Numbered from the stretch's first letter, positions 1 through 17,917 are shown. The stretch is DNA of 23,161 bases from a virus (IMGVR_UViG_2695420643_000009); one strand, 5' to 3'. The notes: generated from the sequence alone by a model not told the origin. Made by a program: numbers and translations.

Positions 1-105
1 ACGAACTGCCCGTTGACGGACCTCGGGGGAAAAACGTGTATTTTTAGTCATCCTGTTTACCTCTTTCTCAGGGAGTTTAGTCTCCAGGATTCCCGGGGCG
101 GTTCA
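1..105 (-). mobile_element. IS3-family insertion sequence (IS629/IS3411-like), inner left-end only; transposase orfA starts at 51 and reads leftward out of the window
   Basis: Minus strand reads TGAACCGCCCCGGGAATCCTGGAGACTAAACTCCCTGAGAAAGAGGTAAACAGG-ATG-ACTAAAAATACACGT..., i.e. terminal TG, RBS and an ORF beginning [17 protein letters not shown], which I recognise as the N-terminus of IS3-family OrfA (HTH transposase). Element end placed at 105 from the terminal TGAACC. Near-identical copy in opposite orientation at 23082..23161. Confidence 0.7.
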
Positions 106-122
106 AAGAGGTTATTATCCTG

Positions 123-527
123 ATGGATCAGGTCGTTGTTTTTCAAAAGATGTTTGAGCAAGTGAGAAAAGAGCAAAACTTCTCCTGGTTTTATTCAGAA
201 TTAAAACATCACCGTATTGCACATTACATTTATTATCTGGCTACGGATAACATCAGAATTATTACTCACGATGACACGGTTTTGTTATTAAGAGGAACCA
301 GGAACCTGTTAAAAGTTAGTACGACCAAGAACCCTGCTAAAATAAAAGAGGCCGCATTGCTTCATATTTGCGGAAAATCTACATTTCGGGAATACTGTTC
401 AACACTAGCAGGCGCGGGCGTTTTCCGGTGGGTTACTGATGTTAATCATAACAAACGCAGTTACTACGCCATTGATAATACGCTTTTATATATTGAAGAT
501 GTAGAAAATAATAAACCATTAATCTAG
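123..527 (+). CDS. ycgX: DUF1398-family protein YcgX (chromosomal, function unknown)
   Basis: 134-aa ORF MDQVVVFQKMFEQVRKEQNF...; matches my recollection of E. coli YcgX in length and sequence, and sits next to iraM as in K-12. AAGAGG RBS 11 nt upstream of the ATG. Confidence 0.8.
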   Translation: MDQVVVFQKMFEQVRKEQNFSWFYSELKHHRIAHYIYYLATDNIRIITHDDTVLLLRGTRNLLKVSTTKNPAKIKEAALLHICGKSTFREYCSTLAGAGVFRWVTDVNHNKRSYYAIDNTLLYIEDVENNKPLI

Positions 528-736
528 CTAAAGTTGGATGCTTAAGAAATGCTTCATAATTCAGTAAGGCATTAGCATAATGGGAATAAAAGTACAGAGA
601 CTATCCCTATGGATGATAAATACTGTCCTTTTATTGCTACCCATAAATAATCACCATGCCAATACTATCAAATTGATATTTGAAATGTGATCACTTGACT
701 TTCTATACGTTATTTTATAACGGTTAATATATTTAT

Positions 737-787
737 AAAAACAACGGGTGTGCCATACGCCCGTTTCAATACTTAACGCACATGTGT
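737..787. repeat. Copy 1 of a ~48-bp terminator-like hairpin repeat (AAAACAACGGGTGTGCCATACGCCCGTTTCAATACTTAACGCACATGTG)
   Basis: About 85 percent identical by eye to 1593..1640, which is the hairpin just downstream of the icd stop. GC stem AACGGG.../...CCCGTT at 743..765, followed on the minus strand by a T-rich run. Confidence 0.5.
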
Positions 788-1222
788 TTTGGTTTAGTCA
801 TCATCCAGTTATATGTATTTTAGCCAGGAACAGGTTAAACCTTTCCTATATAACTCAAAAATTGAAACCTTATTCTCATGTCATGCTTATATTCATTATT
901 ATCGTTATATAAAAAGGCAACCATAATGTTTAGCAAATTGGCACAAAGTAGCATAAAGGCTATGTTTTAATTACAGGATGTTCAGTCATTTGAATGTATA
1001 ACATTATAGCTAAACAAATCTAAAACGAAGTGAATAATTTATTGTTTTCACTAAATCTCATTTTGTTTAACATCCATTGAGATTCCTTGCTTTAAATTTT
1101 GTTTTATATAAGCAATCGTTTTAATTAATTTATTTTTTGAAGGGGTAATATACTCATATGCAAAATAAAGAAATGAACATCCAAATGAACTATATTAAAT
1201 ACCGTGGGATAAGACATAACAA

Positions 1223-1546
1223 ATGAAGTGGATAGTAATTGACACGATAATTCAACCTTCATGCGGCATATCTTTTTCAGCCATATGGGGTAATATGAAA
1301 ATGATCATCTGGTATCAATCTACTATATTTCTCCCTCCTGGCAGTATATTTACACCGGTTAAATCTGGAATTATCCTTAAAGATAAAGAATATCCTATTA
1401 CTATTTATAACATCGCACCATTCAACAAGGATTTATGGAGTCTACTCAAAAGCAGTCAAGAGTGTCCTCCAGGAGAAAGAAAAATAACAAATAAATGTTT
1501 GCATAATAGTTGCATTATAAAAATATGCCCATATGGGCTCAAGTAA
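1223..1546 (+). CDS. iraM: Anti-adaptor protein IraM (inhibitor of RssB-mediated RpoS degradation)
   Basis: 107-aa [44 protein letters not shown]...KICPYGLK; recognised as IraM (same length, near-identical to K-12 as I recall it). AT-rich upstream region. Confidence 0.9.
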
Positions 1547-1602
1547 AGGGTTTTATATAAATATGCTCGATATGCTATTAATAATACCTACATAAATAAA
1601 AC

Positions 1603-1625
1603 AACGGGCGTGTTATACGCCCGTT
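1603..1625 (-). terminator. Intrinsic terminator of icd (hairpin plus T-run on the minus strand); copy 2 of the hairpin repeat
   Basis: Stem AACGGGCG/CGCCCGTT with 7-nt loop, followed on the minus strand by GTTTTATTTAT; lies 24 nt downstream of the icd stop codon (1649..1651, minus). Confidence 0.55.
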
Positions 1626-1648
1626 GCAATATTAAACACATGTAGTGA

Positions 1649-1813
1649 TTACATGTTCTTGATGATCGCATCACCAAATTCTGAACATTTCAGCAGTTTA
1701 GCGCCTTCCATCAGACGCTCGAAGTCATAGGTTACGGTCTTCGCATTGATTGCGCCTTCCATACCTTTAACAATCAGGTCTGCGGCTTCAGTCCAGCCCA
1801 TATGGCGTAACAT
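1649..1813 (-). pseudogene. icdC: icdC: detached 3'-terminal 55 codons of isocitrate dehydrogenase (original icd 3' end displaced by prophage integration)
   Basis: Minus strand translates to [54 protein letters not shown], the Icd C-terminus. Homology to icd stops abruptly at 1813 (upstream is LN*), with no N-terminal part of icd present. Confidence 0.9.
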
Positions 1814-2000
1814 TAGTTAGATGACTAAATCGTAACTATTTGACATAGCAACATAATTTTACTAATTTGCATATAACTCATTAGCCCTTAGCATTTCTAT
1901 AACTCATTGATTATAAACATGTGTTTTTGAGTTTTGATAACCATTTTTAGCATAAAAATAGCAGTTAACATTTGCAGAAGTTAAGATCAGAAAAAATTTT

Positions 2001-2014
2001 TACCCTGTAGGGTA
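2001..2014 (-). terminator. Possible weak intrinsic terminator downstream of mcrA
   Basis: Short palindrome TACCCT-AGGGTA followed on the minus strand by AAAATTTTTT; about 33 nt past the mcrA stop. Stem is short, so weak. Confidence 0.3.
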
Positions 2015-2046
2015 TTACGTCTTAAATGTGACTTTAATAAATAATT

Positions 2047-2880
2047 TTATTTCTGTAATCGGTTTATATTAACGTAAAGCATCTCGATTAGTTCTTTTGC
2101 ATTTTTACTATAGTGCAATTCTCTATGGCAATTCGGACAAAGGGCAACACAGTTATCTGTTGTATCAGCACCACCTGAAGACAGGGGAATTACATGATGC
2201 ACTTCCAAATATGGGTTTCCATCATTTAAATAAAACGGAGCATTTTTACCACAGTTTTCACATATACCTTTACTTTGCTGTAAAATCCAAGCTTTTACCA
2301 TCGGGTCTCGGACATAAACTTTTTGTAGTCTTTCTACCTCAACTGGTTTCCTGGAGCCCTCGGGTTGACTCAACGTTTTCTTAATTAATTTACTAACCCT
2401 CATATTCAGAAGCGATTCATCATCTGTAGGCTGTGAAAGCTCTGATAGTTCTCCACGTATTATAGACGCCCAAAAACTGTCACTATAAATACCTGGAACA
2501 TTTATCAATATTCGTTTCGTTCTATTGCCGGAAGGAATTTCCTTTCTCCCCGTACGACTAAAATAAGCCTGATAACCACACATCTTCAAGCGTATATCGC
2601 GGGGGCTATTACCAATCAAAGTAAAATATTCACCAGGATGGATTTTTCTTTCATCCAAAGAATGCATATGTTTTCTGACTGATGATGACGCCAGATATAC
2701 TACGACTTGGGATACACCAGAATCAACCAACCGTTCAATGATATAATCAAGAGCGATATTGTAATCTTTGTTTCTGTCACCCGGCCCCCACGACTCAAGG
2801 ATTAGACCATAAACACCATCCTCTTCACCTATCGAACACTCAGCTTTCAGTTCAATTCCATTGTTATCAAAAACATGCAT
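2047..2880 (-). CDS. mcrA: McrA, 5-methylcytosine-specific restriction endonuclease (HNH nuclease)
   Basis: 277-aa ORF; C-terminal HNH/zinc motif CENCGK...EVHHVIPLSSGGADTTDNCVALCPNCH visible; length and sequence match my recollection of K-12 McrA; position (phage end next to pin) as in e14. Confidence 0.9.
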   Translation of the reverse strand: MHVFDNNGIELKAECSIGEEDGVYGLILESWGPGDRNKDYNIALDYIIERLVDSGVSQVVVYLASSSVRKHMHSLDERKIHPGEYFTLIGNSPRDIRLKMCGYQAYFSRTGRKEIPSGNRTKRILINVPGIYSDSFWASIIRGELSELSQPTDDESLLNMRVSKLIKKTLSQPEGSRKPVEVERLQKVYVRDPMVKAWILQQSKGICENCGKNAPFYLNDGNPYLEVHHVIPLSSGGADTTDNCVALCPNCHRELHYSKNAKELIEMLYVNINRLQK

Positions 2881-2986
2881 AATATTAATCTTTAATCAAT
2901 TTTTCACGACAATACTACTTTTATTGATAAAATTGCAACAAGTTGCTGTTGTTTTACTTTCTTTTGTACACAAAGTGTCTTTAACT

Positions 2987-3541
2987 TTATTTATCCCCTG
3001 CAGGAAACCTCTTATACAAAGTTGACACACCAACATCATAGATAATCGCCACCTTCTGGCGAGGAACTCCTGATGCAATTAATCGTCCGGCCTGTTCCCA
3101 TTGTTCTGGTGTAAGTTTGGGACGACGTCCACCAATTCGTCCCTGTGCGCGAGCAGCTTCCAGTCCAGCTTTTGTTCTTTCAACAATCAGTTCACGCTCC
3201 ATTTCAGCCAGGGCACCCATCACATGAAAGAAAAAGCGCCCCATTGGGGTACTGGTATCAATTGAATCCGTCAGACTACGAAAGTTGATGCCTCGTTCGC
3301 GCAACTCCTCCACCAGCACGACAAGATGCCGCATACTGCGCCCTAGTCGGTCCAGTTTCCAGACCACCAGCGTATCACCTGCCGATAATGTCCTGAGCAG
3401 TTTTTTCAGTCCCGGCCTTTCGGACTTTGTACCGCTTATCTTGTCTTCAAAAATCAGCTCGCATCCTGCACAGTTCAGCGCATTACGTTGTAGATCTGTG
3501 TTCTGGTCATTTGTTGACACACGTACATAGCCAATAAGCAT
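2987..3541 (-). CDS. pinE: Pin DNA invertase (serine recombinase, Gin/Hin/Cin/Pin family)
   Basis: MLIGYVRVSTNDQNTDLQRNAL... with the catalytic-serine motif GYVRVST and a C-terminal HTH; 184 aa from the ATG at 3541, which has a GGGAG RBS 8 nt upstream. The ORF track's longer 196-aa start at 3577 has no RBS. Confidence 0.9.
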   Translation of the reverse strand: MLIGYVRVSTNDQNTDLQRNALNCAGCELIFEDKISGTKSERPGLKKLLRTLSAGDTLVVWKLDRLGRSMRHLVVLVEELRERGINFRSLTDSIDTSTPMGRFFFHVMGALAEMERELIVERTKAGLEAARAQGRIGGRRPKLTPEQWEQAGRLIASGVPRQKVAIIYDVGVSTLYKRFPAGDK

Positions 3542-3567
3542 GGTAGATCTCCCTGACAAAAGCAGGA

Positions 3568-4119
3568 ATGATGCCATTTGCTCGTTATTTCTGCATTTTC
3601 ATAAACGTTGGTTTGGGAGAAGGTTCGGCATTACCCGTTGGCGTGCCTGTTCCGTGGCCTTCCGCCACTCCGCCAACAGGCTGGCTGAAATGCAACGGTG
3701 CCGCTTTTTCTGCTGAAGAATACCCGGAACTGGCAAAGGCTTATCCGACAAATAAATTGCCTGATTTACGTGGTGAGTTTATTCGTGGCTGGGATGACGG
3801 GCGTGGAGTGGATAGCGGTCGTACTTTATTAACGAATCAAGAGCATGCAGTAATTTCTCATAATCATGGAATACCTACAAAAGTGGGGTCAGTTACTAAT
3901 ATCCCGTATGGAATAGAACAGGTTATATCTGATGAAACCATTTTTTCATCAGCAAAAACAGTTGGTGTGGATTACTGGTCTAACAGTGAGCGAGTTTTTA
4001 CTTATACCACTGGTGGAAGAAATGGTGCTGAATCAGTGAGTTCACCTGATGCCTCCTCTTTAATTAAAGAAACCAGACCACGGAACCTGGCATTTGCGTA
4101 TATCGTGAGGGCTGCATAA
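3568..4119 (+). CDS. stfE: Promoterless tail-fibre C-terminal (variable) cassette, stfE-like, duplicate copy A; lacks the constant N-terminal fibre domain
   Basis: 183-aa ORF whose residues from [32 protein letters not shown] to AYIVRAA are identical to the C-terminal 150 aa of the expressed fibre 6024..6824. DNA identity checked at several points. Confidence 0.55.
   Translation: MMPFARYFCIFINVGLGEGSALPVGVPVPWPSATPPTGWLKCNGAAFSAEEYPELAKAYPTNKLPDLRGEFIRGWDDGRGVDSGRTLLTNQEHAVISHNHGIPTKVGSVTNIPYGIEQVISDETIFSSAKTVGVDYWSNSERVFTYTTGGRNGAESVSSPDASSLIKETRPRNLAFAYIVRAA
3596..3621 (+). promoter_or_regulatory. pixL: 26-bp Pin crossover site (TTTTCATAAACG-TT-GGTTTGGGAGAA)
   Basis: Imperfect dyad with the same 12-2-12 architecture as gix (TTCCTGTAAACC-GA-GGTTTTGGATAA, from memory); lies between pin and the cassette; inverted-repeat identity with pixR starts exactly at the central dinucleotide (3608). 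Confidence 0.6.
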
Positions 4120-4550
4120 TGGATTACGCTGTATTAAATAACGAATTTATCGCCACCCAAGCAGGAAATATTACGGTTTATAACTATGATGGTGAAACAC
4201 GGGAATATATTTTCACATCAACTGAATATCTTGCTGTGGGTGTCGGCATTCCGGCATGTTCCTGTTTAGATGCTCCTGGCTCATACAAAACTGGGTATGC
4301 AATCTGCCGTTCTGCAGATTTTAACTCATGGGAATATGTGCCAGACCATCGTGGTGAAATCGTCTTTAGCACAGAAACAGGAGAATCAAAAGAAATCAAA
4401 GCTCCGGGTGATTACCCTGAAAATACAACCACTATCGCCCCTTTATCTCCATACGATAAATGGGATGGTGAGAAATGGGTAACCGATACTGAGGCACAGC
4501 ATAGCGCCGCAGTAGACGCGGCAGAAGCACAGCGCCAGTCACTGATTGAT
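3608..4550. repeat. Inverted repeat copy A (943 bp): stfE variable cassette plus first 144 codons of tfaE
   Basis: Perfect identity to the reverse complement of 5593..6535 wherever I spot-checked (boundaries, 4081..4140 vs 6001..6060, 4201..4260 vs 5881..5940); translated ORFs are identical. Confidence 0.85.
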
Positions 4551-4607
4551 TGGTTTGGGAGAAGCGGCAAAAAGGAATGTGGGCAACGGGGAAAACCAAA
4601 TCCCTGA
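4119..4607 (+). pseudogene. Truncated tail-fibre assembly gene: tfaE N-terminal 144 codons fused to 17 unrelated codons (WFGRSGKKECGQRGKPNP*)
   Basis: Identical to TfaE (5422..6024) through ...AEAQRQSLID, then diverges at 4551, where the sequence becomes the right half of a pix site. Confidence 0.6.
4538..4563 (+). promoter_or_regulatory. pixM: hybrid pix-like site (GTCACTGATTGA-TT-GGTTTGGGAGAA) with a canonical right half and a tfaE-derived left half
   Basis: Right half and centre identical to pixL/pixR; left half is tfaE coding sequence; the inverted-repeat identity ends inside the central dinucleotide (4550/4551). Confidence 0.45.
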
Positions 4608-5004
4608 TATGTCTTTCTGGACGGTTACTGGTGGCAATGGAAATTTTGTGATTCGTCAACCTGACGGGCTAATCACTCAGATGGTTACTGTAAGTATAAG
4701 CGGTCCAGTGGCGATGAATGGAATGACTGATAATGCTTATGCCATTACAGGTTCTAATAAGTCTTATATTGCCACAGCCACATTGCCCTTTGTATTTCCT
4801 AATAAGGTGCTGGGCGTTATCCCTCTGGTATCAACAACAGCCTATGGTGGTGTATCCAGTAATATTACAGGTTCATACGCGACGGCGGTTTGTTCTTTTG
4901 CCGCTGTCCGGGGGAATAATACGATTGTATTCAAAGTCGACAAACCACTGAATGCAGCCTTTCCTTCAGATACCAGCGTCTCAGCGTTAATCATTGGACG
5001 GTAA
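4549..5004 (+). CDS. Silent alternative tail-fibre variable cassette (Sv'); has no start of its own, would be fused in frame to the constant fibre domain after inversion
   Basis: Open frame ...IGLGEAAKRNVGNGENQIPDMSFWTV...VSALIIGR*. The GLGE codons (GGT TTG GGA GAA) are in the same phase as the GLGE at the Sc-Sv junction of the expressed fibre; followed directly by a tail-fibre assembly gene. Confidence 0.6.
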   Translation: MGLGEAAKRNVGNGENQIPDMSFWTVTGGNGNFVIRQPDGLITQMVTVSISGPVAMNGMTDNAYAITGSNKSYIATATLPFVFPNKVLGVIPLVSTTAYGGVSSNITGSYATAVCSFAAVRGNNTIVFKVDKPLNAAFPSDTSVSALIIGR

Positions 5005-5006
5005 TA

Positions 5007-5450
5007 ATGAACTCAGTATTCTTTTCACCCGGAAGTAAAAGTTTTTATCTACAAGAATTGTTTCCAGAATATGAGGATGCGGGAACGCTTCCAGATGATG
5101 TTATTGAAATTACCCGAGAAACATATGAGCAATTTCTTGGGCTGCATCCAGAAGGGAAAGAAATTGGCGCTGACAGTTCAGGACGGCCAATATGGATTAA
5201 TTCCCCACCGCCTTCAAAAGAGGATGAGGTGTTGATGGCTGAAATGAAAAAAATATCTTTGGTTTCAGAAGCCAATACCTACATCAATACCCATCAGTGG
5301 CCTGGCAAAGCTGCTATTGGTCGTCTGAAAGGTAACGAGCTGGAGCAATATAATTTATGGCTGGATTATCTGGACGCACTGGAACTGGTTGATCCCTCCA
5401 GTGCTCCAGATATTGAATGGCCTACGCCTCCGGCAGTTCAGGCCAGATGA
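5007..5450 (+). CDS. Tail-fibre assembly protein (alternative, tfaP-like), partner of the silent Sv' cassette
   Basis: 147-aa ORF MNSVFFSPGSKSFYLQELFPEYEDAG...IEWPTPPAVQAR; resembles the tail-fibre assembly chaperone family, including the C-terminal WP motif region; starts 3 nt after the Sv' stop; converges on tfaE. Confidence 0.7.
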   Translation: MNSVFFSPGSKSFYLQELFPEYEDAGTLPDDVIEITRETYEQFLGLHPEGKEIGADSSGRPIWINSPPPSKEDEVLMAEMKKISLVSEANTYINTHQWPGKAAIGRLKGNELEQYNLWLDYLDALELVDPSSAPDIEWPTPPAVQAR

Positions 5451-6024
5451 CATTCGGCGCGGTGCTGGTATCTGTTGCCGTCACCGCGTCAATGTAATCC
5501 AGCACAGCGTTAAGCTGGGTTGTTTCTGCCTGCGTCAGTTTCCGTCCGGCCTGTAATTTCAGCTGAATCAGACTGATGGAAGCCATTGCAGCATCAATCA
5601 GTGACTGGCGCTGTGCTTCTGCCGCGTCTACTGCGGCGCTATGCTGTGCCTCAGTATCGGTTACCCATTTCTCACCATCCCATTTATCGTATGGAGATAA
5701 AGGGGCGATAGTGGTTGTATTTTCAGGGTAATCACCCGGAGCTTTGATTTCTTTTGATTCTCCTGTTTCTGTGCTAAAGACGATTTCACCACGATGGTCT
5801 GGCACATATTCCCATGAGTTAAAATCTGCAGAACGGCAGATTGCATACCCAGTTTTGTATGAGCCAGGAGCATCTAAACAGGAACATGCCGGAATGCCGA
5901 CACCCACAGCAAGATATTCAGTTGATGTGAAAATATATTCCCGTGTTTCACCATCATAGTTATAAACCGTAATATTTCCTGCTTGGGTGGCGATAAATTC
6001 GTTATTTAATACAGCGTAATCCAT
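5422..6024 (-). CDS. tfaE: Tail-fibre assembly protein TfaE
   Basis: 200-aa [28 protein letters not shown]...VIWPELPEA; start overlaps the fibre stop; matches my recollection of e14 TfaE (200 aa). Confidence 0.85.
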   Translation of the reverse strand: MDYAVLNNEFIATQAGNITVYNYDGETREYIFTSTEYLAVGVGIPACSCLDAPGSYKTGYAICRSADFNSWEYVPDHRGEIVFSTETGESKEIKAPGDYPENTTTIAPLSPYDKWDGEKWVTDTEAQHSAAVDAAEAQRQSLIDAAMASISLIQLKLQAGRKLTQAETTQLNAVLDYIDAVTATDTSTAPNVIWPELPEA

Positions 6025-6535
6025 TATGCAGCCCTCACGATATACGCAAATGCCAGGTTCCGTGGTCTGGTTTCTTTAATTAAAGAGGAGGCATCAGGTG
6101 AACTCACTGATTCAGCACCATTTCTTCCACCAGTGGTATAAGTAAAAACTCGCTCACTGTTAGACCAGTAATCCACACCAACTGTTTTTGCTGATGAAAA
6201 AATGGTTTCATCAGATATAACCTGTTCTATTCCATACGGGATATTAGTAACTGACCCCACTTTTGTAGGTATTCCATGATTATGAGAAATTACTGCATGC
6301 TCTTGATTCGTTAATAAAGTACGACCGCTATCCACTCCACGCCCGTCATCCCAGCCACGAATAAACTCACCACGTAAATCAGGCAATTTATTTGTCGGAT
6401 AAGCCTTTGCCAGTTCCGGGTATTCTTCAGCAGAAAAAGCGGCACCGTTGCATTTCAGCCAGCCTGTTGGCGGAGTGGCGGAAGGCCACGGAACAGGCAC
6501 GCCAACGGGTAATGCCGAACCTTCTCCCAAACCAA
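5593..6535. repeat. Inverted repeat copy B (943 bp): expressed stfE variable region plus tfaE N-terminal part
   Basis: Reverse complement identical to 3608..4550 (see copy A). Confidence 0.85.
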
Positions 6536-6824
6536 GGTTTTCGAGAGCTGTTTTCACCGTGCCATCCGATTTGATATCGCCAAACGGATTCTTGCGGCTT
6601 AACAGCAGCGCACGAAGCGCGGTAAGCAACTGGTCGTGCCGCGCCTTCTCCAGGCTGGCACCGGATGCCTCCACCACGCTGCAGAGTTCTTCCTGCAACA
6701 TATCAAAGTAGTCATCATCCAGATCGGTGGCAGGCGTGCCAGTCTGGGGGTTACCACGGGTAAAACCGTTCTTACCCACGCCGAACTTATCCTTCTGCGC
6801 GGTTTTCGTGTCTATACGATGCAT
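6024..6824 (-). CDS. Side tail-fibre protein: constant N-terminal domain (about 116 aa) fused at a GLGE junction to the stfE-type variable C-terminal domain; currently the expressed fibre
   Basis: 266-aa [24 protein letters not shown]...; GGAG RBS 7 nt upstream; start 3 nt after the ymfQ stop; C-terminal half is duplicated at 3608..4119. Confidence 0.85.
6522..6547 (-). promoter_or_regulatory. pixR: 26-bp Pin crossover site inside the fibre gene (minus strand CTCTCGAAAACC-TT-GGTTTGGGAGAA)
   Basis: Near-palindromic; same right half as pixL but on the opposite strand (inverted orientation, as inversion requires); encodes the ...ENLG-LGE junction of the fibre. Confidence 0.6.
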
Positions 6825-6827
6825 GGA

Positions 6828-7412
6828 TTACTCCGGATATTTAAAAATTACGTAGGTATGCGACGGGCAGAGTTTGTTAAGCACACACTCGACAACGGTG
6901 TCACCCCAGATACGCAGTGCGGAATCACAGGGATCGCCACATGTCATCCAGGTGGTGTTGGTGGTGGTTGGCATGTTGACCTGCCAGTAATACCGCCATT
7001 CCGGCGCATTCACCGCGTCAGTACAGGCCGATGAGCAGGTGAACGTGCTTTTGTCGTATCGCGTGATGGTGGCATCTGGTCTGCCCAGGGCAGCAAGCTG
7101 TGCAAGATAAAAATCCTCGTTGATGCCGCCCGCCAGGTTAACCTTCGCATCCAGCCGTTGCTGACGCTGGCGAAGGGTCTGCGTTCCCGCCGGAATACAT
7201 TCATCCGGCAGACCGCACAGACGCTCCCAGCGGTTTATCAGTTCAGTGGTGGTGCGCGGATCCAGCTCCCGCATCAGGGCATCCGCACGCTGATGAACAC
7301 GGGTTAATGACGGTGCCGCACCGGCAATCGCCGGATCGCTGGCTGACCACGCCGGACCGGGCGGCAACAGTGCCGATAACAGGCGGATGTAATCATCGTT
7401 TGTCACGTCCAT
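6828..7412 (-). CDS. ymfQ: YmfQ-like tail/baseplate protein (Mu gp48-like, DUF2313)
   Basis: 194-aa ORF directly upstream of the fibre gene; same length and position as e14 ymfQ as I recall it. Confidence 0.75.
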
Positions 7413-8461
7413 GAAATCGTCCCCAGTACCGCCAGTTCGTTTTTCGCAATGGAGATATTGTCCACCGGTGCAAGCAACTGATGGCTGTATTCCCCGTTCG
7501 CACCGGAAATCGCCTCACTGATACGCGATACCTTCAGTTCTCCCTGCGGATAACCATCACGCAGCAGGAACGAACGCAACTCCGCGGTAATGGCAGCCCG
7601 TATTTCCGGTGTGTCCGGCGTCACGCGGATATGAAAATCCACTTTATGCGCCACCGGCCTGAATACATACAAATCAGAGCCTGCCACCGGGGCCAGTGGC
7701 TCAATGTGTTGTCTTGCCGCCGTTTCCGTTGATTCTTCCGGAATGGGATTAATCAGGTCACTGCTGGCAATCATCACACCGACAGTTCCCGTTCCCATCC
7801 AGTGACGGTATGTCCATGCGCGGGTAATGCCGGGCACTTCTTTAGCCCAGACGACATAGTCCCCGTCAGCCCCGCCCTGAGGCGTCCAGTAATACCGCTC
7901 AATGACGCGGGCGCGCCACGTTTCCAGCTCTTCAGTATCAAATCCACCTGTCAGGGTATCTGCCACGCCGGAAGACGGCAGACCATTAACCGGCGTGACC
8001 AGGATTAATGACGTACCGTCGTCAGCGTTACCGACCGCGCCTGCACTTGAGCAGGCGATCGGCACGCGCAGGACACCACCGGAGCTGGTTGCATCGGCAG
8101 TTGCCGTGTACTGAACCAGGTCATCGCGCTGAATAACACTCCCGGCGGTCACCTTCAGGCCATCGCTGACACCTTCCCAGCGCATATACCCGCTGGCAGC
8201 CGTGGCCCCCTTGCGCGGACACCGTTTCATCGCAGCATGTCGCGCCAGCCAGGACTCATCGCACAGGTCAGGCAGCATGTTCATTGCCAGATAATCGATG
8301 TACCCGTAAACCGTATGCAGCGCCGCCGCATACACCTTTGCCCGCACGTCTTCATCCATGCGCCGGAGCGTGTCGCTGACGTCCAGCCTGGCGAATAAAT
8401 CGTTACGGAGCATACTGATATTTTCTGCCAGCGTCGGGCGCTGAAATTCACTGTCCGCCAT
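7403..8461 (-). CDS. Baseplate J-like protein (Mu gp47-like; full-length counterpart of the e14 jayE fragment)
   Basis: 352-aa ORF; position between gp46-like and ymfQ-like genes; baseplate-J family resemblance. Confidence 0.8.
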
Positions 8462-8876
8462 GCGTTATCGCACTCCACAGATCATCAAAAGAAATCATTA
8501 CCGGTCCGTCACGACGCCAGAGAGTGATACTGTTACCCAGTTCATTAATCCCGGTGCGGTGGATATCCAGATCAATACGGGACACCACGCCGTCATCAAT
8601 CATCCATTGCAGGCATTCGCGGATATACCCCCTTACCGTCAGCACCAGCTGATTGGTCAGTTTGCTGCGCTGAAGCAGCCACAGTCGGGAGCCGTAACGG
8701 TCATTCTGTACCGCAGGCCAGGTATCCCCCCACCATCCCATCGGGACGTCGGCGTTGTCATCAGGCTCCGCCCGCCGCCAGGTAAACAGGGAAATCACCA
8801 CGGCGCGGGTCAGCGGATCCAGCGGTGCGCTGGCGCAGGTGCGTTTACCGTTCACCGTCAGCCACAGTTCCATCAT
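8448..8876 (-). CDS. Baseplate protein, Mu gp46-like
   Basis: 142-aa ORF with the Trp-rich character of the gp46 family; overlaps both neighbours. Confidence 0.65.
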   Translation of the reverse strand: MMELWLTVNGKRTCASAPLDPLTRAVVISLFTWRRAEPDDNADVPMGWWGDTWPAVQNDRYGSRLWLLQRSKLTNQLVLTVRGYIRECLQWMIDDGVVSRIDLDIHRTGINELGNSITLWRRDGPVMISFDDLWSAITHGGQ

Positions 8877-9421
8877 GCCTCCATCGATTTATCAGGTTTG
8901 TCGGTGTTACTGCCCTGACCGTTCTCTCTGTGACGATGCCCGTTATAGGCAAGCCGCATCGCTGACATGGTGGTGCCGCTGGAGTCGCACAGGTCTTTCA
9001 CCTGTCCTGTCACTTCCAGGTCCATTTCAAAACGTGCTTTAGGTGAATTGCGAAACGTGATCGTTTTACCTGCACCGTCCACCACGATCCCCTCCCGGGT
9101 CAGCGTCACGGACTGCCCCTGATCGTCATAGACAGCCACCTCACCCGTCTGCAGCCCTTTCAGGCGGTAGCGCCGGTCCGACACCGTAACAACCACCGCA
9201 TGAGAACGGTCACCATCCGGAAACAACACCACCGCTTCCGCACCGCTGTTTGCCCTTGCGGTAAAACCGTAGGGTTCAAGATGTTCAACCCCGGCTTTGG
9301 GTTCACCGGCAATCAGGGACACATCCACGGTCTGACATTTCGTGGCGGCACTGATGCTTTTCACCACCGCCCGCCCAATCAGGCCGAGGAGTTGTCGCTG
9401 CATGGCTTCAATCGCCTTCAT
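8873..9421 (-). CDS. Baseplate assembly/spike protein (gpV-like, Mu gp45-like)
   Basis: 182-aa ORF; ATGA overlap with the upstream gene; gpV-family resemblance. Confidence 0.7.
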   Translation of the reverse strand: MKAIEAMQRQLLGLIGRAVVKSISAATKCQTVDVSLIAGEPKAGVEHLEPYGFTARANSGAEAVVLFPDGDRSHAVVVTVSDRRYRLKGLQTGEVAVYDDQGQSVTLTREGIVVDGAGKTITFRNSPKARFEMDLEVTGQVKDLCDSSGTTMSAMRLAYNGHRHRENGQGSNTDKPDKSMEA

Positions 9422-10500
9422 CAGAACGGGTCCTCCTGTACTCTGGCTTTTTTCTTTTTCCGCGCGCCGGGGGCTTCGGGTTCAGGCAGATAAGCATCAG
9501 GTGGGCCGACACGGATTTCCGTCAGGGTGCCATTCTGGTCCTGAGTAAACGTGACTTCCGAGACAAGCAGTTCGGTATTGTCGAAACCACAGACCGGATC
9601 GAAGACAATCACCCGCTGGTTGGGCTGCCACAGCGTACCGTTACCCTGTCGCCAGCCCTGCACCACATAGGTGGTTTCATCCGTCCGCGCCGCCCGTTGT
9701 CGGGCTTCAAAGTCAGCACGCGCAATACAGCCTGCCCCCGTAGCCTGCCCTGTCTGCCTGATATACATCGGACGGTAACGGGCAATAAATGCGTCCTCTG
9801 TGCGGGCCCGCAGCGCAGTTGTGGTGGCCTCACCGAAATCATCGTCGTTTCCGGCACGCTGCCCCGCCACCTGGTAAACAGAAAACCGCTCCCGGATACT
9901 CTTCTCCGTATCGCAGGAAAGGATGTTTTCCCCGAGTACCAGCGCGGTATGTGCCCGCGTTGAGCCAATACCGCCAATCACCAGCCTGCCGTGCGGGTCG
10001 TCATAAGCCAGCGCCTGCTGCTGACCGAGTATTTTGTTAATCACCTCGATCACCGTTTCACCGTGATCAGGCTGGACATCAGGAATAACACCCGACGGCG
10101 CACCGCTGTTCACCACCTCAATGCCGAAGGGCGCAGCAAGCGCCTGCGCAATCTGTACCAGTGATCGTCCGTTAAACTGTGTCGGTTCAGCTGCACAATC
10201 AATCAGGTCAGCGGTCAGACTGCGTCCGGCAATACCGGTGCTGACCGAACGGGCATCGTAACGAACGGGCGTCGCCTCCACCCAGCCGGTGATCACCAGC
10301 TCATCACCAATCAGCACCTCCACTTTTGAACCGTTTTTAATGCGCGGCTGAAGCGTGGTGATACCCTCATCACCCGGCCACTGGCGGGTGATCTCCACAC
10401 TGAAATCCCGCGCCAGTCGTTCAACACCGGCACCGATGCGCACCGATGTCCAGCCATTCCACTCCCGGCCATTTACCCGTAGCGTGACATTGTCGTTCAT
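9421..10500 (-). CDS. Tail/baseplate hub protein (P2 gpD-like, Mu gp44-like)
   Basis: 359-aa ORF; C-terminal Lys-rich tail (ARKKKKARVQEDPF); synteny with the Mu-like tail module. Confidence 0.65.
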   Translation of the reverse strand: MNDNVTLRVNGREWNGWTSVRIGAGVERLARDFSVEITRQWPGDEGITTLQPRIKNGSKVEVLIGDELVITGWVEATPVRYDARSVSTGIAGRSLTADLIDCAAEPTQFNGRSLVQIAQALAAPFGIEVVNSGAPSGVIPDVQPDHGETVIEVINKILGQQQALAYDDPHGRLVIGGIGSTRAHTALVLGENILSCDTEKSIRERFSVYQVAGQRAGNDDDFGEATTTALRARTEDAFIARYRPMYIRQTGQATGAGCIARADFEARQRAARTDETTYVVQGWRQGNGTLWQPNQRVIVFDPVCGFDNTELLVSEVTFTQDQNGTLTEIRVGPPDAYLPEPEAPGARKKKKARVQEDPF

Positions 10501-11825
10501 TGCACTGGCACCTTCAGAGGGATCACCGGCACAAAGCCGGGATGCGTAATGGCATTACGCCGGATAATGTCCGCATCACGCGCCGCGTTATCAAACCAGG
10601 TCGCCGCCAGCACCAGCGCGGGTAAAACCTCATCCGGTGTGCGCTGAATGATCCGTGCAGACTGTTCAAGGCGCGTGTTGATATCCGCATTCAGATCTGC
10701 TTTCACCCGGCGCAGTGCCAGAAACAGCGCATCACTGGTTGTACGGGACAACTCCTTATCAATTGCCGTATTCAGTGTGTCGCGAATGTCAGTCAGTTCT
10801 TCCCACGTTGGCAGGTCAACCGTGTTTTTCACCGCCGGTGCATTGTTCAGTGCCGGATGCGTGACGGAAGGCCAGCCAGTGCTCTGCGCAGGTGTTGTTG
10901 ACTGCCCCACTGCGGCATTCTGCATCACCGCGGAAGTTGTTGGCGCAGGCAATCGGGTGACGGCATACGCCGCTTCGCTGATTGCGGTCGTACGAAGGGT
11001 GCTGGCAACCTCGTTACGCTGATGCGTCGCCGTGGCGGTGGTTTTACTGTCCGTTTTCCAGACGCCGCGCGGTTGCAGATCGCTGCCGAGGCTGACACCG
11101 GAAAGCGTTTTGATCATGGTGACCAGGTCGCTGGCGTTACCATAAAGGCGTTTCCCGGTACGCCACATTTTCTGCATCTGCTCAACGAAATTTTTGCCTG
11201 ACGATGGTGGCGGCAGAAGTACCGAGATATCCCCCTGCAACAGCCTGGCAGCATCCGATACGGCAGAATCCACCACTTTCATCGCATCAGAAACATACCC
11301 AAGCATTGTGCTGGCATTACCGACGACGTCGTTCTGCACAAAATCCGCCACGCCATCGATACTGAAACCGCTGAAGCTGTCACTGATGCAGTCATCCAGT
11401 GCAGAACAGGATGACATCAGCGTCTGCGCCGTCGCCGCACCTGATGTGGGGTAAGAGAGTTCTCCCGCTTCGACAAACTTCAGGTCAAAGCGGACAATAC
11501 GCCCTTCACTCTTCGATGTGCTGACCCGAACCTCTCCGTCAACACAGACTTTCAGCTCACCGTAAGTCGGATGGACAAGCGTGCCGGGACCGGGTTTATT
11601 CAGCGCGTCAATCAGACGATCGCGCTGGTCAAAGCAGTCATCTCCCACCACATAAGCTGTGATGGACGGGCGGAAAGTGATTTTCCCCAGGTCTTCGGTA
11701 TAGGGTTTGTCGCGGTTCGGGTATTCGTGCGTTTCCACACGACGACCGGTTCCCGCACTTTCTTCTTCAACCTTAAACGGCACACCGCGAAATGACGCGT
11801 CCTGAAGTCTGTCTTTCCACGTCAT
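10497..11825 (-). CDS. DNA circularisation protein (Mu gp43-like, N-terminal DNA_circ_N domain)
   Basis: MTWKDRLQDASFRGVPFKVEEESAGTGRRVETHEYPNRDKPYTEDLG... is typical of the family N-terminus. Start taken at the ATG at 11825 (GGAG 6 nt upstream) rather than the RBS-less track start at 11867. Confidence 0.7.
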   Translation of the reverse strand: MTWKDRLQDASFRGVPFKVEEESAGTGRRVETHEYPNRDKPYTEDLGKITFRPSITAYVVGDDCFDQRDRLIDALNKPGPGTLVHPTYGELKVCVDGEVRVSTSKSEGRIVRFDLKFVEAGELSYPTSGAATAQTLMSSCSALDDCISDSFSGFSIDGVADFVQNDVVGNASTMLGYVSDAMKVVDSAVSDAARLLQGDISVLLPPPSSGKNFVEQMQKMWRTGKRLYGNASDLVTMIKTLSGVSLGSDLQPRGVWKTDSKTTATATHQRNEVASTLRTTAISEAAYAVTRLPAPTTSAVMQNAAVGQSTTPAQSTGWPSVTHPALNNAPAVKNTVDLPTWEELTDIRDTLNTAIDKELSRTTSDALFLALRRVKADLNADINTRLEQSARIIQRTPDEVLPALVLAATWFDNAARDADIIRRNAITHPGFVPVIPLKVPVQ

Positions 11826-11885
11826 ATAAACTCCGTACATAAAAAATCCCACCGGAGTGGGACTCATTAACAGATTAATTTTTCA

Positions 11886-13721
11886 TTACCTGCCAAAGCG
11901 CGTATAGCCAACATCATGGCTGACATCAAAACCGCTGGATCGCGTTTCCATAACCCGCATACCCGGAGGCGAATTCACAAAAGAGACCTTGATCTCACCA
12001 TCAACTTTTGGCGCAGAAGCTTTGTTAATCATGAAGGGATTCGGGCCTGTGGCATCGGAGGCGTTGTTTGACTGAGCCGGATCTACCGCCTGATAAGGTG
12101 TGTATCCCCGTGCCGGTATTCCCGTCCCATAAGCATCATAAGCACCCGCGCCCCACTGCGCAGAGTTAATGGCATCGACCGTGTCACCGGAACTGTCGGT
12201 AAACCACTCAATAATTGGCTTCAGCTTGTCCCACATATCCTGAAACCACTTAACAACCGGTCCCCAGTTATTGATTACCATCCCCAGCGGCGACCAGGCA
12301 AAAACCTTCTTCAGAAGTTCCCAGCCAGCCTCAAAATAAGGACCAATGGTTTCCCAGAGCTTCTTGAAATAAGGTCCGACAACATCCCAGTTAGTGATAA
12401 TTAATCCCGCAGCCAGGGCTATCGCCGTCGCAATCATTCCAATCGGCGTCATCGACATGATCCTGCTGACAATACTGATGGCACCGCCAACGCCCATCAA
12501 TCCCAGTTTCAGAATCGCAAGACCGGCAGCAAGCCCGACGACGCCGCGAATAACCCGGGGATTTTCATCCGCAAACTTCGTGAATTTTTCCCCCAACTCC
12601 CCCAGCCATTGCGTGATATTTTTAGCGTCACCAGAAAATGCGCCGCCAATAGCTGCAAGACCGTTAGTTGCGGTCCCCGTCATTGCCTCCCACAGGTTGG
12701 ACAGCGTACCAAGCTGTGCCTGAACACGTTTATTCAGGCTGGCCTGTTTATTCATCTTCTGCTGGATCTGATCGTAACCATCCTTTCCTTTATCGATCAG
12801 AGCATTGACCACCTGAAGGGTTTCGGCATCATCACCAAATATTGCCTTAAGTACACCTGTTCGCTTAACGTCGGTCAGTTTTCGCAGCTTTGCCAGTTGC
12901 TTAAACATGTTATCAAGACCGCCAAAACTCCCTTTGCCGTCAGTAAAATCGAGCTGCACTCCGAGTTTCTGGCGGGCCATGACTTTATTGACGTCCCTGA
13001 TTTTCTTAACGCTTAATCCGGACTGGATAACTTTTCGCAGGGCATTACCTGCCGACTCCCCGTTCATCCCCATCTGATCCATCATGACGCTGATAGGGGC
13101 AAGGCTCTGTGCAGCCTGAAGACCGTCCTTATTCACCATCTTCAGAACAGAACTGGTTTTAGTGAAGAAGGACAACATGTTGGTATCGTCAACGCCCAGA
13201 TAAAACGCCTTCTGGATAGTATCGAACAGCCCCATCATGTCTTCTGAGGCCGTTCCGGTAGCATCCTGCATCTTTGCTGCAAACTCAGCAGCCGCTTCCG
13301 GTGTTTTTTTCAGTTGTACCGCAAGATAAGCTGTCGCTTTACCCACACCACCCAGGATGTTTTCTGCCGGGATCCCCTGACGCACCAGCATCTGCATCAT
13401 GTTCTGGAAATCAGCCGTTGTACCGGGTAGCTGGTTACCCAGGCCAATAGCCAGTTTATTGATGTCCTGAAAGCGCTTTCCAACCTCGCCGTTCGCATCC
13501 ATCATGGCGACTTTCAGCCCGGTAGCGGCGTTTTCCTGATCGGCATAAGATTTCAGGGAAAGCGTCAGCCCCGCTGCCAGTCCGCCACCAAGCGCCAGCC
13601 CACCCTGTGACGCTTCTTCCGCCTGGCGTTTAAATCCCCGGATTTTCTTTTGCATTTTCGACAGCGCGGGAGAAAGCCTGTCGACACCGGTGATCAACGC
13701 CTTAAGCTCAAATTCAGCCAT
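11886..13721 (-). CDS. Tail tape measure protein
   Basis: 611-aa ORF; Ala/Gly-rich helical sequence with hydrophobic segments (GVVGLAAGLAILKLGLMGVGGAISIV...) and a Trp-rich C-terminal region; position after the chaperone pair. Confidence 0.85.
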   Translation of the reverse strand: MAEFELKALITGVDRLSPALSKMQKKIRGFKRQAEEASQGGLALGGGLAAGLTLSLKSYADQENAATGLKVAMMDANGEVGKRFQDINKLAIGLGNQLPGTTADFQNMMQMLVRQGIPAENILGGVGKATAYLAVQLKKTPEAAAEFAAKMQDATGTASEDMMGLFDTIQKAFYLGVDDTNMLSFFTKTSSVLKMVNKDGLQAAQSLAPISVMMDQMGMNGESAGNALRKVIQSGLSVKKIRDVNKVMARQKLGVQLDFTDGKGSFGGLDNMFKQLAKLRKLTDVKRTGVLKAIFGDDAETLQVVNALIDKGKDGYDQIQQKMNKQASLNKRVQAQLGTLSNLWEAMTGTATNGLAAIGGAFSGDAKNITQWLGELGEKFTKFADENPRVIRGVVGLAAGLAILKLGLMGVGGAISIVSRIMSMTPIGMIATAIALAAGLIITNWDVVGPYFKKLWETIGPYFEAGWELLKKVFAWSPLGMVINNWGPVVKWFQDMWDKLKPIIEWFTDSSGDTVDAINSAQWGAGAYDAYGTGIPARGYTPYQAVDPAQSNNASDATGPNPFMINKASAPKVDGEIKVSFVNSPPGMRVMETRSSGFDVSHDVGYTRFGR

Positions 13722-13881
13722 GTGTGCGTTTCTCCTGCTCTATCCTGTTTGCCTGACTGACCAGCAAGGGAATTTCACTGATCGGCATATTCAGCAATTC
13801 GAAGGGATTAATGCGCCAGTAGCTGGCGCAGTCAAAGAAGCGATCAGTGAGGTATTCAGCCGTCAGGCCTGGAGGAAAAAA
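13714..13881 (-). CDS. Frameshift extension (T part) of the tail assembly chaperone; expressed only as a G-T fusion by -1 frameshifting
   Basis: -1 frame relative to 13863..14132; slippery heptamer T-TTT-TTC (plus-strand 13875..13881 GAAAAAA) at the start of the overlap; ORF runs to a stop at 13714 overlapping the tape-measure start. Confidence 0.55.
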   Translation of the reverse strand, partial: FFPPGLTAEYLTDRFFDCASYWRINPFELLNMPISEIPLLVSQANRIEQEKRTHG

Positions 13882-14132
13882 CCAGCCACAAGCCACGCCG
13901 CTGCATTCAGGTCTGCCGGAGACATCTGGTCGACAGAGCTTTGCGGCACTTTCGCCAGCCGCACAATGTATTTCGACACCACATGCGCCAGAAGTCTGAC
14001 GGACTCATCCTGATTCATCTGGTAGGGATACCCCAGCTCGCGGACATCCTTCCCGGTGGGTTCATCAAACTCCAGTACGGAGAGTGTCTCGCCATGAGCA
14101 ATAATCGGTTTCTTTAACTCAAGCTCTTTCAT
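13863..14132 (-). CDS. Tail assembly chaperone (gpG-like)
   Basis: 89-aa ORF between the tail tube and tape measure genes; ATGA overlap with the tube gene; ends ...AGFFLQA* over the slippery site. Confidence 0.7.
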   Translation of the reverse strand: MKELELKKPIIAHGETLSVLEFDEPTGKDVRELGYPYQMNQDESVRLLAHVVSKYIVRLAKVPQSSVDQMSPADLNAAAWLVAGFFLQA

Positions 14133-14488
14133 TACTGGTAATCCCCTTCTTCACCGTGGAACTCAAGATCAACCGTGCCTTCTTCGGCATTATGGTTCGC
14201 TTCGCCGTGCAGCCAGGCAGACGACAATACATAGACCTGACCGTTCGCCAGCTCGGCAGTGATGGTCATCTCAACAGACGAGGTGATTTTGCTCACCGGA
14301 AAATTCTTCGGCACCTTGAAGGTTCCTTTGACATAAGGCGCGCGGTGAGTTTCCTTGCGGTCCACTGAACCATCCAGACCGATGATGTCATCGTTAACCG
14401 TTTTGTTCATGGGCACCTCAATGCCGCCGGTCAGCGATAGCTGCTGACCGTCAATTTTGAAATAACAGGTTCCCCCGATACGGGCCAT
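14132..14488 (-). CDS. Tail tube protein (Mu gpM-like)
   Basis: 118-aa ORF immediately after the sheath gene with ATGA overlap. Confidence 0.7.
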   Translation of the reverse strand: MARIGGTCYFKIDGQQLSLTGGIEVPMNKTVNDDIIGLDGSVDRKETHRAPYVKGTFKVPKNFPVSKITSSVEMTITAELANGQVYVLSSAWLHGEANHNAEEGTVDLEFHGEEGDYQ

Positions 14489-15984
14489 TATGCAGACTCC
14501 TCTGAATACTGAAGACGGAACTGGTTAACCACGGCAAAGACACGCAACTGGTTAACATAGTCAGGCGGGAACAGCGTGTTCAGGCGGTTCGGATCGCTGG
14601 CATCACGCTCCACAATCAGGTACTGCTTGAACAGTTCGTAGTTTTCCACGATCCCCGCACGCTCGAGCTGACGGTAGGTTGCCAGCAGTTCCCCTTTGAT
14701 CACCGCCGGGGTGACAATCGCCTGACCGGGACCAAAGCGGGTACCGTCACTGGCAAGCTTGTGACGCCCGTACTTACTGGTAATGACGGATTTCAGTTTG
14801 CGCAGTACATACGCGCTGGTATGCAGCGTCTCGCTGTCGAGGTAGCTGTTATCCGCAACACCGTAAGCGTTTTTCCTGTACGTGGTGACATCACGCTGAA
14901 TGCGCAGCACCCCGCTTTCGACATACGCCGTTGCCACGCCATGAGACAGCAGGGTCTGTTGTTCGGTCATCGTGAACCGTTTCCCCTTCGGCGCAGGCAG
15001 CATACCCACCAGCTCACCGGTCTGCGTGGGACGTGCCGGATCGTTGCGAATAAACACCGCTGCGCGGGCGGTACGGCTTGCCGCCAGCTCGTCGGCAGGC
15101 GTCTGGGTCTCTTTTTCGTATCCCGCCAGGGTAATGTGCTGCTGGTTAAACTGGTCACCTGCGGTCACCAGTTCTGACAGCGTGCCGATCTTTGCCGTGT
15201 ACACATGACCATACAGCTGACGCGCATAGCTCCAGCGACCGCTGGTATCGTTCATCTCGGTCACCAGCGTGTTAACGGAGGCCGTGTCGTTGAACGGCAG
15301 GCCGATATAATCAAACGGCTCATCCGCCATTGCAGCCACCGCGCCGGTGAGAACAGGAGCGCCCGTTCCGGCGGTACCCGTCGCCACGGCAATCTGTACG
15401 CCCGCTGGCAGCACTTCGCCCCCACCAAAGCCGTAGTAATTGAGGCTGACAGGAATTTCATTCCCGCAAAGCCCCTTATGACGCGCGGTCAGTGTGACCA
15501 CGCCTGCCGAAGATGAGGCAGTAAACGGCAGGGTCGGAACGGCATTGATGGCATCTTTGATACTGCTGGCAATCGTCGCGACGTTATCGCCGTTGGTCAC
15601 CGGTGCCTGCACGCGGGTACGTCCCACATAAACATTCACCGTGCCGGTTTCGGTTGCCGCGCCGGTCACCGTCAGCGTAACTGTTGCCGCCGCGCCCGTG
15701 GATTCAGGAACGGCAATCACATACAGTTCACCAAACGGGTCGGTCTGGCGATAAGCCTCGACCATACGCGCCAGCTGACTTCCCGCACCACAAATCTGGC
15801 GTGCATAGTCTGCCGACGGCATCAGCACCAGACTGTTGGCAACAATCTCTGCACCGTTATTGGCATGACCAATCAGCAGCGATGCTCCGCTGTCCTGTGC
15901 AGTATTCGCAGCCTGGTTATCCATTTCCGCATAAAACAGCGGAACCAGCGTATTCGACGGAATGGTGTTAAAGCTTATCGTCAT
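14488..15984 (-). CDS. Contractile tail sheath protein (Mu gpL-like)
   Basis: 498-aa ORF; size, position and sheath-family resemblance. Confidence 0.85.
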   Translation of the reverse strand: MTISFNTIPSNTLVPLFYAEMDNQAANTAQDSGASLLIGHANNGAEIVANSLVLMPSADYARQICGAGSQLARMVEAYRQTDPFGELYVIAVPESTGAAATVTLTVTGAATETGTVNVYVGRTRVQAPVTNGDNVATIASSIKDAINAVPTLPFTASSSAGVVTLTARHKGLCGNEIPVSLNYYGFGGGEVLPAGVQIAVATGTAGTGAPVLTGAVAAMADEPFDYIGLPFNDTASVNTLVTEMNDTSGRWSYARQLYGHVYTAKIGTLSELVTAGDQFNQQHITLAGYEKETQTPADELAASRTARAAVFIRNDPARPTQTGELVGMLPAPKGKRFTMTEQQTLLSHGVATAYVESGVLRIQRDVTTYRKNAYGVADNSYLDSETLHTSAYVLRKLKSVITSKYGRHKLASDGTRFGPGQAIVTPAVIKGELLATYRQLERAGIVENYELFKQYLIVERDASDPNRLNTLFPPDYVNQLRVFAVVNQFRLQYSEESA

Positions 15985-16138: not shown

Positions 16139-16146
16139 GATGATCC

Positions 16147-17915: not shown

Positions 17916-17917
17916 AC

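Follow-up and report, generated by a model that had tools for sequence, protein, structure and literature searches.

Does the invertible tail-fibre segment beside pinE carry three crossover sites instead of two? The first-pass annotation of this DNA proposed that it does, naming the sites pixL, pixM and pixR. We analysed the proposal in the window, that is, the whole stretch of 23,161 nt, which is the entire draft contig CYFQ01000050.1 (GCA_001284485.1). Three copies of the motif are indeed present in the window, but the middle copy is very probably an artefact, the position next to its centre (4549) being an N in the public record. The third site is thus, in all likelihood, a product of assembly, and the locus the usual P segment, with two sites, of an e14-family prophage located at icd in E. 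coli.

We examined the genes around the segment, which are collected in Table 1. The open reading frames that had been named for the fibre, tfaE, Sv' and its Tfa all exist, and the description of the locus as a Pin-type tail-fibre switch of the e14 kind was borne out. The translation of pinE begins MLIGYVRVSTNDQ (N-terminus MLIGYVRVS(9)T), is 98% identical to PinE of K-12, and matches the structure of the Gin DNA invertase 3UJ3 with E = 5.5e-95 over residues 1-181. PinE, whose gene adjoins the segment, is a small serine recombinase that has its catalytic serine near the N-terminus and an HTH at the C-terminus. The gene names mcrA, in collinear genomes, and tfaE and ymfQ, in relatives, are those annotated there, and at the place of the icd' fragment K-12 J53 has an annotated partial isocitrate/isopropylmalate dehydrogenase pseudogene. 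In NCBIfam, neither the fibre nor the Tfa proteins received a family-level name.

The expressed cassette is indeed faced by a silent Sv'/Tfa cassette. Each of these two convergent cassettes consists of a variable domain and an assembly gene; both are inside the segment, and the constant 5' part of the fibre gene is outside it. On inversion in silico, the constant part continues in either orientation in frame through the shared ENLGLGE, giving fibres of 266 aa (with SvA) or 247 aa (with SvB), and the 247-aa fibre gene is called in three natural flipped isomers (L018, L020 and L022). The first-pass annotation had ascribed this fusion to recombination between pixM and pixR. An exchange at the central TT would be in frame as predicted, but pixR has pixL as its true partner: SvB follows pixL immediately in near-identical relatives. 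Relatives also have a 163-aa open reading frame that runs from upstream of pixL into SvB.

Table 1. Features of the invertible segment and its surroundings (window coordinates).
Feature	Position	Strand	Basis or remark
icd' fragment, e14 attachment-site marker at the prophage end	1649..1813	-	Pfam Iso_dh (weak) on a 54-aa gene
mcrA, HNH 5-methylcytosine-specific endonuclease, cargo beside pin	2047..2880	-	277-aa ORF; PF01844 HNH
pinE, serine DNA invertase, 184 aa, catalytic Ser9	2987..3541	-	Pfam Resolvase and HTH_7
pixL, genuine crossover site	3596..3621	+	TTTTCATAAACG TT GGTTTGGGAGAA
Very probably artefactual duplicate: SvA of the flipped isomer and tfaE nt 1-430	3608..4548	+	reverse complement of 5595-6535
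'pixM', very probably a pseudo-site	4538..4563	+	left half tfaE coding sequence plus N; centre and right half those of the real pixL
Scaffold gap	4549..4549		'N' in the public record, shown as 'A' in the window
SvB (Sv'), silent alternative variable domain	4552..5004 (ORF start 4546/4552)	+	ORF; directly after pixL in the real locus
tfaB, tail-fibre assembly gene of the silent cassette, 147 aa	5007..5450	+	PF02413 Caudo_TAP
tfaE, tail-fibre assembly gene of the expressed cassette, 200 aa	5422..6024	-	PF28596 and PF02413
Expressed tail fibre, 266 aa	6024..6824	-	PF07484 Collar; constant part 6536-6824, SvA 6024-6535
pixR, genuine crossover site within the fibre gene	6522..6547	-	CTCTCGAAAACC TT GGTTTGGGAGAA
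ymfQ, Mu Gp48-like baseplate protein, first gene of the constant tail module upstream of the fibre	6828..7412	-	PF10076

We then compared the three copies of the motif. The 14-mer TTGGTTTGGGAGAA is found, as had been reported, at 3608-3621 and 4550-4563 on the plus strand and at 6522-6535 on the minus strand, three matches against 0.20 expected, a number reached in none of 100 shuffled sequences; the 26-bp intervals assigned to pixL, pixM and pixR are also correct in the window. The repeats are identical to the inversion repeats TTGGTTTGGGAGAAGG of K-12 e14, at which the P segment has been shown to invert (PMC12529663), which upholds the view of the motif as an invertase crossover site. In addition, pixL and pixR fit the site consensus of the Hin/Gin/Cin/Pin family quoted in PMC4134206. 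These two are both 26 bp long, stand in inverted orientation, share the central dinucleotide and have two half-sites each. The left half of pixL occurs at the pin-side site of all related loci (16 occurrences), and that of pixR at the fibre-side site of all of them (18 occurrences).

The left half of pixM (GTCACTGATTGA) is coding sequence of tfaE. Its score as a half-site (GTCACTGATTG plus the N) equals the median for random 12-mers: 49% of the 12-mers of the window score at least as high against the pix half-site, versus 0.01% for the left half of pixL.

The window and CYFQ01000050.1 were compared over 1024-11824 (10,801 nt) and differ at a single position, 4549, immediately 5' of the central TT of pixM, where the window has 'A' and the record 'N'. 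Across the junction the record reads cactgattgNttggtttggg. Because this base is an N, the pixM junction is an unsequenced scaffold gap, and the N suggests that no reads spanned it. A chimeric open reading frame of 162 aa crosses the junction; an exact look-up of its product gave no match, as explained by the X that the product of the record has at codon 144.

The sequence to the left of the junction is a duplicate, which had been overlooked. Positions 3608-4550 are a perfect inverted copy, 943 nt long, of 5593-6535, and comprise the expressed variable domain and the first 432 nt (72%) of tfaE. With the N and the tfaE-derived left half, this perfect inverted duplication undermines the middle site.

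As a reference we used L007 (VTWD01000004.1), a relative whose P segment is unflipped as deposited. Window positions 106-4548 matched this locus with its P segment flipped in silico without any mismatch, and positions 4550-11824 matched it as deposited with one mismatch. When 3608-4549 were taken out, the window was again collinear with L007, with one mismatch in 10,777 nt. Beyond 4548 the flipped isomer would read ATGCTGCAATGG, and the window changes to TTGGTTTGGG; the junction in question thus connects tfaE at about nt 430 to TTGGTTTGGGAGAAGCGG. The right piece begins at T4550, which is the first base past the G/C difference between the left halves of pixL and pixR, and the start of the sequence common to both orientation isomers. 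The proposal of three sites instead of two therefore fails at its middle member, which stands on an N and joins parts of opposite orientation isomers.

We searched for the junction in other genomes. It is spanned in none of 5,426 complete E. coli genomes, where every match breaks at 4550, and no genome covered 80% or more of window positions 2900-7000. Junction patterns gave no match in the GTDB representative genomes or the JGI metagenomes, although these patterns carried the substituted 'A' and were unable to match the source record itself. The other related loci that cover the whole P segment have exactly two sites each, with only two types of left half among them. One candidate for an extra cassette, the APEC O78 locus (L004) with three annotated tfa entries, proved to have only two sites, one tfa being disrupted. 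The duplicate stretch 3608-4548 is absent from three relatives that are otherwise 100% identical (L006, L007 and L008), all of them unflipped. L018, L020 (CP182557.1) and L022 are flipped, and L020 is 99.98% identical to the window over 106-4550. Both orientations thus occur among near-identical deposited genomes.

These results suggest how the contig arose. PinE would exchange strands at the central TT of pixL and pixR and turn the segment of about 1,982 bp, so that the constant 5' part of the fibre would be joined in frame either to SvA and tfaE or to SvB and tfaB. The sequenced culture probably contained both orientations, and the draft assembly, presumably at a scaffolding or gap-filling step, would have linked part of the flipped isomer to part of the unflipped one. 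The former (window 1-4548) runs pin-pixL-SvA-tfaE, and the latter (4550 onward) from the pix core through SvB and tfaB to the convergent tfaE-SvA-pixR-constant part. Joined across a gap of a single N, with the N rendered as 'A', the two pieces would mimic a third pix site and a perfect inverted duplication.

Published descriptions of assembly software are in line with such a join. GapFiller lengthens the ends of contigs one base at a time, and a gap is closed only where the two extensions share 10 nt or more (PMC3446322). Both SSPACE and GapFiller work greedily and can produce false joins; in one widely used pipeline they are run only on reads that fail to map as proper pairs (PMC5320598). In a mixed culture, these are exactly the reads of the minority orientation. 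Mixed orientations of prophage fibre segments can lead to artefactual duplications in assemblies (PMC4134206). What fits assembly as the origin of the join less well is that the left extension ends after exactly 941 nt.

A real duplication could have been made by Pin itself, through unequal exchange between sister chromosomes whose segments stood in opposite orientations, in which the right half of pixL recombined with a TG-centred quasi-site in tfaE, and the N would then be a local failure of base calling. The geometry fits, as the new junction is exactly at the pix central dinucleotide, where a serine invertase cuts, and a flipped left part followed by an unflipped right part is the expected intermolecular product. 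An N, moreover, marks only unknown sequence, and a short unresolved stretch is compatible with a true copy. Cin is reportedly able to recombine at quasi sites, with localized conversion of the central dinucleotide (Iida and Hiestand-Nauer, in 1986 and 1987); our literature search on Cin quasi-sites returned nothing usable. However, the record has an N at the junction, the left side of the quasi-site has no pix half-site likeness, its right side, judged by eye, has essentially none, and its centre is TG rather than TT. The junction is also a singleton, with no second case in the 5,426 genomes or in any other collection searched. Furthermore, since the site centre coincides with the start of the sequence common to both isomers, a node boundary in the assembly graph predicts the same position without any enzyme. 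We therefore abandoned a Pin-mediated origin as the main explanation, on account of the N, the lack of half-site similarity in the quasi-site and the node-boundary alternative, and regard it as improbable. If it were true, the locus would have four isomers and the switch would be biased, as three of the four would express SvA, two of these with a truncated TfaE, and only a crippled hybrid site would give access to SvB. It would also show, in a natural isolate, a duplication generated by a serine invertase at a secondary site of unrelated sequence.

Even less probable is a real inverted duplication formed without Pin acting at a secondary site, either through break repair or because replication switched templates from one 15-nt pix core to another. 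The 942-nt insert is bordered by 15-nt direct repeats (TTGGTTTGGGAGAAG) and is an inverted copy of nearby sequence, but the return switch would have had only 1 nt of microhomology, for which we rejected this origin; the junction being an N and the structure a singleton speak against it as well. The least tenable reading, effectively refuted, is a natural system with several bona fide sites and more than two fibre cassettes: the window text does hold three copies of the right half and centre, and multi-site serine-invertase systems exist (Sandmeier et al.), but there are only two distinct cassettes, since the 'third' repeats the expressed one in inverted form with 100% identity, the middle site has no left half-site and lies on an N, and neither three or more bona fide sites with two halves nor recurrence is seen, as no relative has more than two sites and none of the complete E. 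coli genomes has the junction.

A two-site switch in a chimeric assembly thus remains by far the best explanation. The feature is the already known tail-fibre switch of e14, PinE with the P segment, two sites and two cassettes, and biologically there is very little new in it. The chimeric contig is an indirect sign that the culture of this isolate had a flipping P segment, which is consistent with work showing that inversion of the e14 P segment by PinE, PinQ or PinR affects phage adsorption (PMC12529663). For annotation, the case means that a draft assembly can merge the two orientation isomers of an invertible segment into one chimera, and that an N turned into a base conceals the join, which then passes for an additional recombination site with a perfect duplication. 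Comparison of a sequence with its source record for Ns would remove such false positives.

We compared the locus with known systems. It occupies the same chromosomal site as e14 of E. coli K-12 J53, with icd', mcrA and pinE collinear and 96.9% identical, and it shares with K-12 e14 (stfE/tfaE and stfP/tfaP) the arrangement of a constant fibre part outside, and two convergent Sv and Tfa cassettes inside, the segment. In DNA sequence the region of the pin gene is about 97% identical to that of K-12. The P segment here is, however, about 1,982 bp rather than the 1,797 bp of K-12. SvB and tfaB have no megablast-level match to K-12 stfP/tfaP, and SvA departs from K-12 stfE after about 200 nt. In addition, the head and tail modules of this prophage are intact; the e14 of K-12 is defective. 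As in Gin/G of Mu and Cin/C of P1, a small serine invertase acts at 26-bp sites with a 2-bp centre, and the switch acts on tail-fibre C-termini and assembly chaperones, though phage backbone and cassettes differ from those of both. Min of p15B, which has six crossover sites, belongs to the same invertase family, has the same kind of fibre-gene target, and is the precedent for more than two sites; yet its several sites are genuine and its cassettes distinct, whereas here the extra site is very probably a scaffold join and the extra cassette a duplicate. The closest parallel to the contig itself is E. coli EC958 (Forde et al. 2014, PMC4134206), in which a culture of mixed orientation likewise disturbed assembly at an invertase-controlled fibre segment, and whose authors warn explicitly that phage regions may acquire artefactual duplications. 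The alternative isomers of EC958 appeared as separate PacBio contigs, whereas here a partial isomer appears to have been joined into the main contig via a single N.

The 14-mer TTGGTTTGGGAGAA, which comprises the central TT and the right half-site of the Pin crossover sites, occurs three times in the window (chance expectation 0.2), and the 26-bp sites and named ORFs of the first-pass annotation were all found in their places. As a description of the window text, the three-copy observation holds; the third site itself is very probably an assembly artefact. An exact look-up of the fibre protein led to the source record, CYFQ01000050.1 (GCA_001284485.1), a 23,161-nt draft contig. A base-by-base comparison of window 1024-11824 with this record gave one difference, at the pixM junction, where the record reads ...cagtcactgattgNttggtttgggagaagcggc... 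The one junction that is new in this structure is therefore a gap left unsequenced. In the window text the ambiguous base had been swapped for A, masking the scaffold join, and further such replacements may lie outside the compared range. An exact protein look-up of the chimeric 162-aa ORF returned no entry, as expected from the X that the N creates in the record's product.

Coordinates of the features in the window
Feature	Position	Strand	Remark
pin	from 3541		184-aa form, as annotated in relatives
Longer pin ORF	from 3577		196 aa, possible
Tandem ATG codons	3568-3573		begin silent pin-side ORF
pixL	3596-3621	+	14-mer at 3608 (+)
pixM	4538-4563	+	14-mer at 4550 (+)
pixR	6522-6547	-	14-mer at 6522-6535 (-)
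Junction base	4549		A in window, N in record
Inverted repeat, pin-side copy	3608-4550		943 nt
Inverted repeat, fibre-side copy	5593-6535		943 nt
SvB	4552-5004		silent cassette
tfaB	5007-5450		silent cassette
tfaB/tfaE overlap	5422-5450		29 nt, convergent 3' ends
Baseplate, tail, sheath, tape-measure, capsid, protease and portal genes	6828-23161		uninterrupted; terL cut by contig end

Self-comparison of the window revealed a perfect inverted repeat, overlooked by the first-pass annotation, in which the inverted copy runs from the first T of the pixL centre to the first T of the pixM centre. The pin-side cassette is a copy of SvA, the variable domain that is expressed, and of nt 1-432 of tfaE and, thus, provides no third specificity. 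pixM is a hybrid: its match to pix is limited to the centre and right half, while GTCACTGATTGA, on its left, belongs to the coding sequence of tfaE and scored, with any base put in place of N, at the random 12-mer median against the pix half-site. The silent pin-side ORF crosses pixL, and the public gene call takes its second ATG, giving 182 aa. The overlap of tfaB and tfaE is also seen in K-12 tfaP/tfaE (related locus L002, 6782-6810).

We used the related locus L007 (VTWD01000004.1) as a canonical two-site reference and inverted its P segment in silico, with the exchange placed at both central dinucleotides. Window 106-4548 matched the flipped form with no mismatches and window 4550-11824 matched the deposited form with one; the window minus 3608-4549 differed from L007 at one position in 10,777 nt. 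Past 4548 the flipped isomer continues as ATGCTGCAATGG, whereas the contig switches to TTGGTTTGGG. The right piece starts at the first base past the single G/C difference between the left halves of pixL and pixR, where sequence common to both isomers begins, and a graph-based assembler would be expected to begin a contig there.

None of 5,426 complete E. coli genomes covered at least 80% of window 2900-7000, the best matches being without ~940 bp. The closest, L001, in which pixL abuts SvB directly, runs collinear at 99.65% with window 4550-10000. With a 221-nt query that had the pixM junction at its centre, none of the 5,426 gave a match spanning it, all matches ending at query position 111 (window 4550). 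The opposite orientation, mcrA-pinE-pixL-SvA-tfaE, is present in 177 genomes, K-12 derivatives among them; the window therefore resembles the left part of a flipped isomer followed by the right part of an unflipped one. Both isomers occur naturally: L006, L007 and L008 are unflipped (100% or 99.99% identity), and the complete genome CP182557.1 (L020) is flipped, with 99.98% identity over window 106-4550, an inverted P segment and a 247-aa SvB fibre gene. Exactly two sites are present in every other fetched locus that spans the segment in full, and left halves among related loci are of two types only, CTCTCGAAAACC at fibre-side sites and TTTTCATAAACG at pin-side sites. The proposal of three sites instead of two is not supported, as the pixM junction lies on the record's N and relatives spanning the segment are two-site.

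The artefact probably arose from a culture containing both P-segment orientations. The pin-side contig edge would have been extended for 941 nt along the flipped isomer, entering SvA and tfaE, and, as this extension could never overlap the contig on the far side, an N would have been left. Tools of the GapFiller type lengthen the edges of contigs one base at a time, and a gap is closed only if the extensions from its two sides share an overlap of 10 nt or more (PMC3446322). In one pipeline that is in wide use, SSPACE and GapFiller are run on non-proper-pair reads only, with false joins possible according to its authors (PMC5320598); in a mixed culture, such reads would be those of the minority orientation. 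Invertible fibre segments are exactly where Forde et al. warned of artefactual duplication of this kind (PMC4134206). A real duplication, pooled over three rival explanations, is improbable. Our initial model, in which Pin acted at a secondary site within tfaE and brought about unequal exchange between sister chromosomes, would account for a junction placed exactly at the pix centre, which favours a break made by an enzyme, but was set aside because the junction base is N in the record.

Gene content beside the switch varies. The gene or genes between pin and the prophage end (window 2047-2880) differ among otherwise near-identical prophages (L001, L016-L018, L020, L022-L024) and include mcrA (HNH), a LEM-3-like GIY-YIG protein, GmrSD, an AAA_15/AAA_21 pair, and EcoRII with a cytosine methylase; the spot looks like a hotspot for defence cargo. 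An identical cassette of the 182-aa silent SvA ORF and TfaE (L015 and L017, 5001-6151, against window 3571-4548 and 5422-6535) lies behind two baseplate backbones, Mu Gp48 with a 352-aa Baseplate_J and Phage_Wedge1 with a 399-aa Baseplate_J, indicating that cassettes are exchanged among types of prophage. In the collection, 840 blocks list the exact protein. In L023, inserted IS66-family and IS3-family elements (5590-9370) separate the SvA ORF from tfaE within the P segment, and the fetched range contains one pix core only.

The switch itself, the Pin system of e14, is already known. What the window covers is the icd end of a prophage of the e14 family, in the order ycgX, iraM, icd' fragment, mcrA, pinE, P segment, ymfQ, baseplate, tail, head and terL. 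Its PinE is 98% identical to that of K-12 and matches the Gin invertase structure (E = 5.5e-95). The core repeat is identical to the TTGGTTTGGGAGAAGG repeats of the K-12 e14 P segment, at which inversion has been shown experimentally and PinE, PinQ and PinR are all active (PMC12529663). PinE would cut pixL and pixR at their central TT, inverting ~1,982 bp. In the unflipped form, residues 1-96 (the constant part, with ENL at its end) would be joined through GLGE to SvA; the product is a Collar-domain fibre of 266 aa, and tfaE comes next. In the flipped form, SvB would take the place of SvA, for a fibre of 247 aa, and tfaB comes next. The in-frame fusion to the alternative variable part that had been proposed is reproduced in silico, but the partner of pixR is pixL rather than pixM. 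In K-12 e14 the baseplate J, portal and terminase genes are pseudogenes, whereas the prophage described here has uninterrupted baseplate and portal genes.
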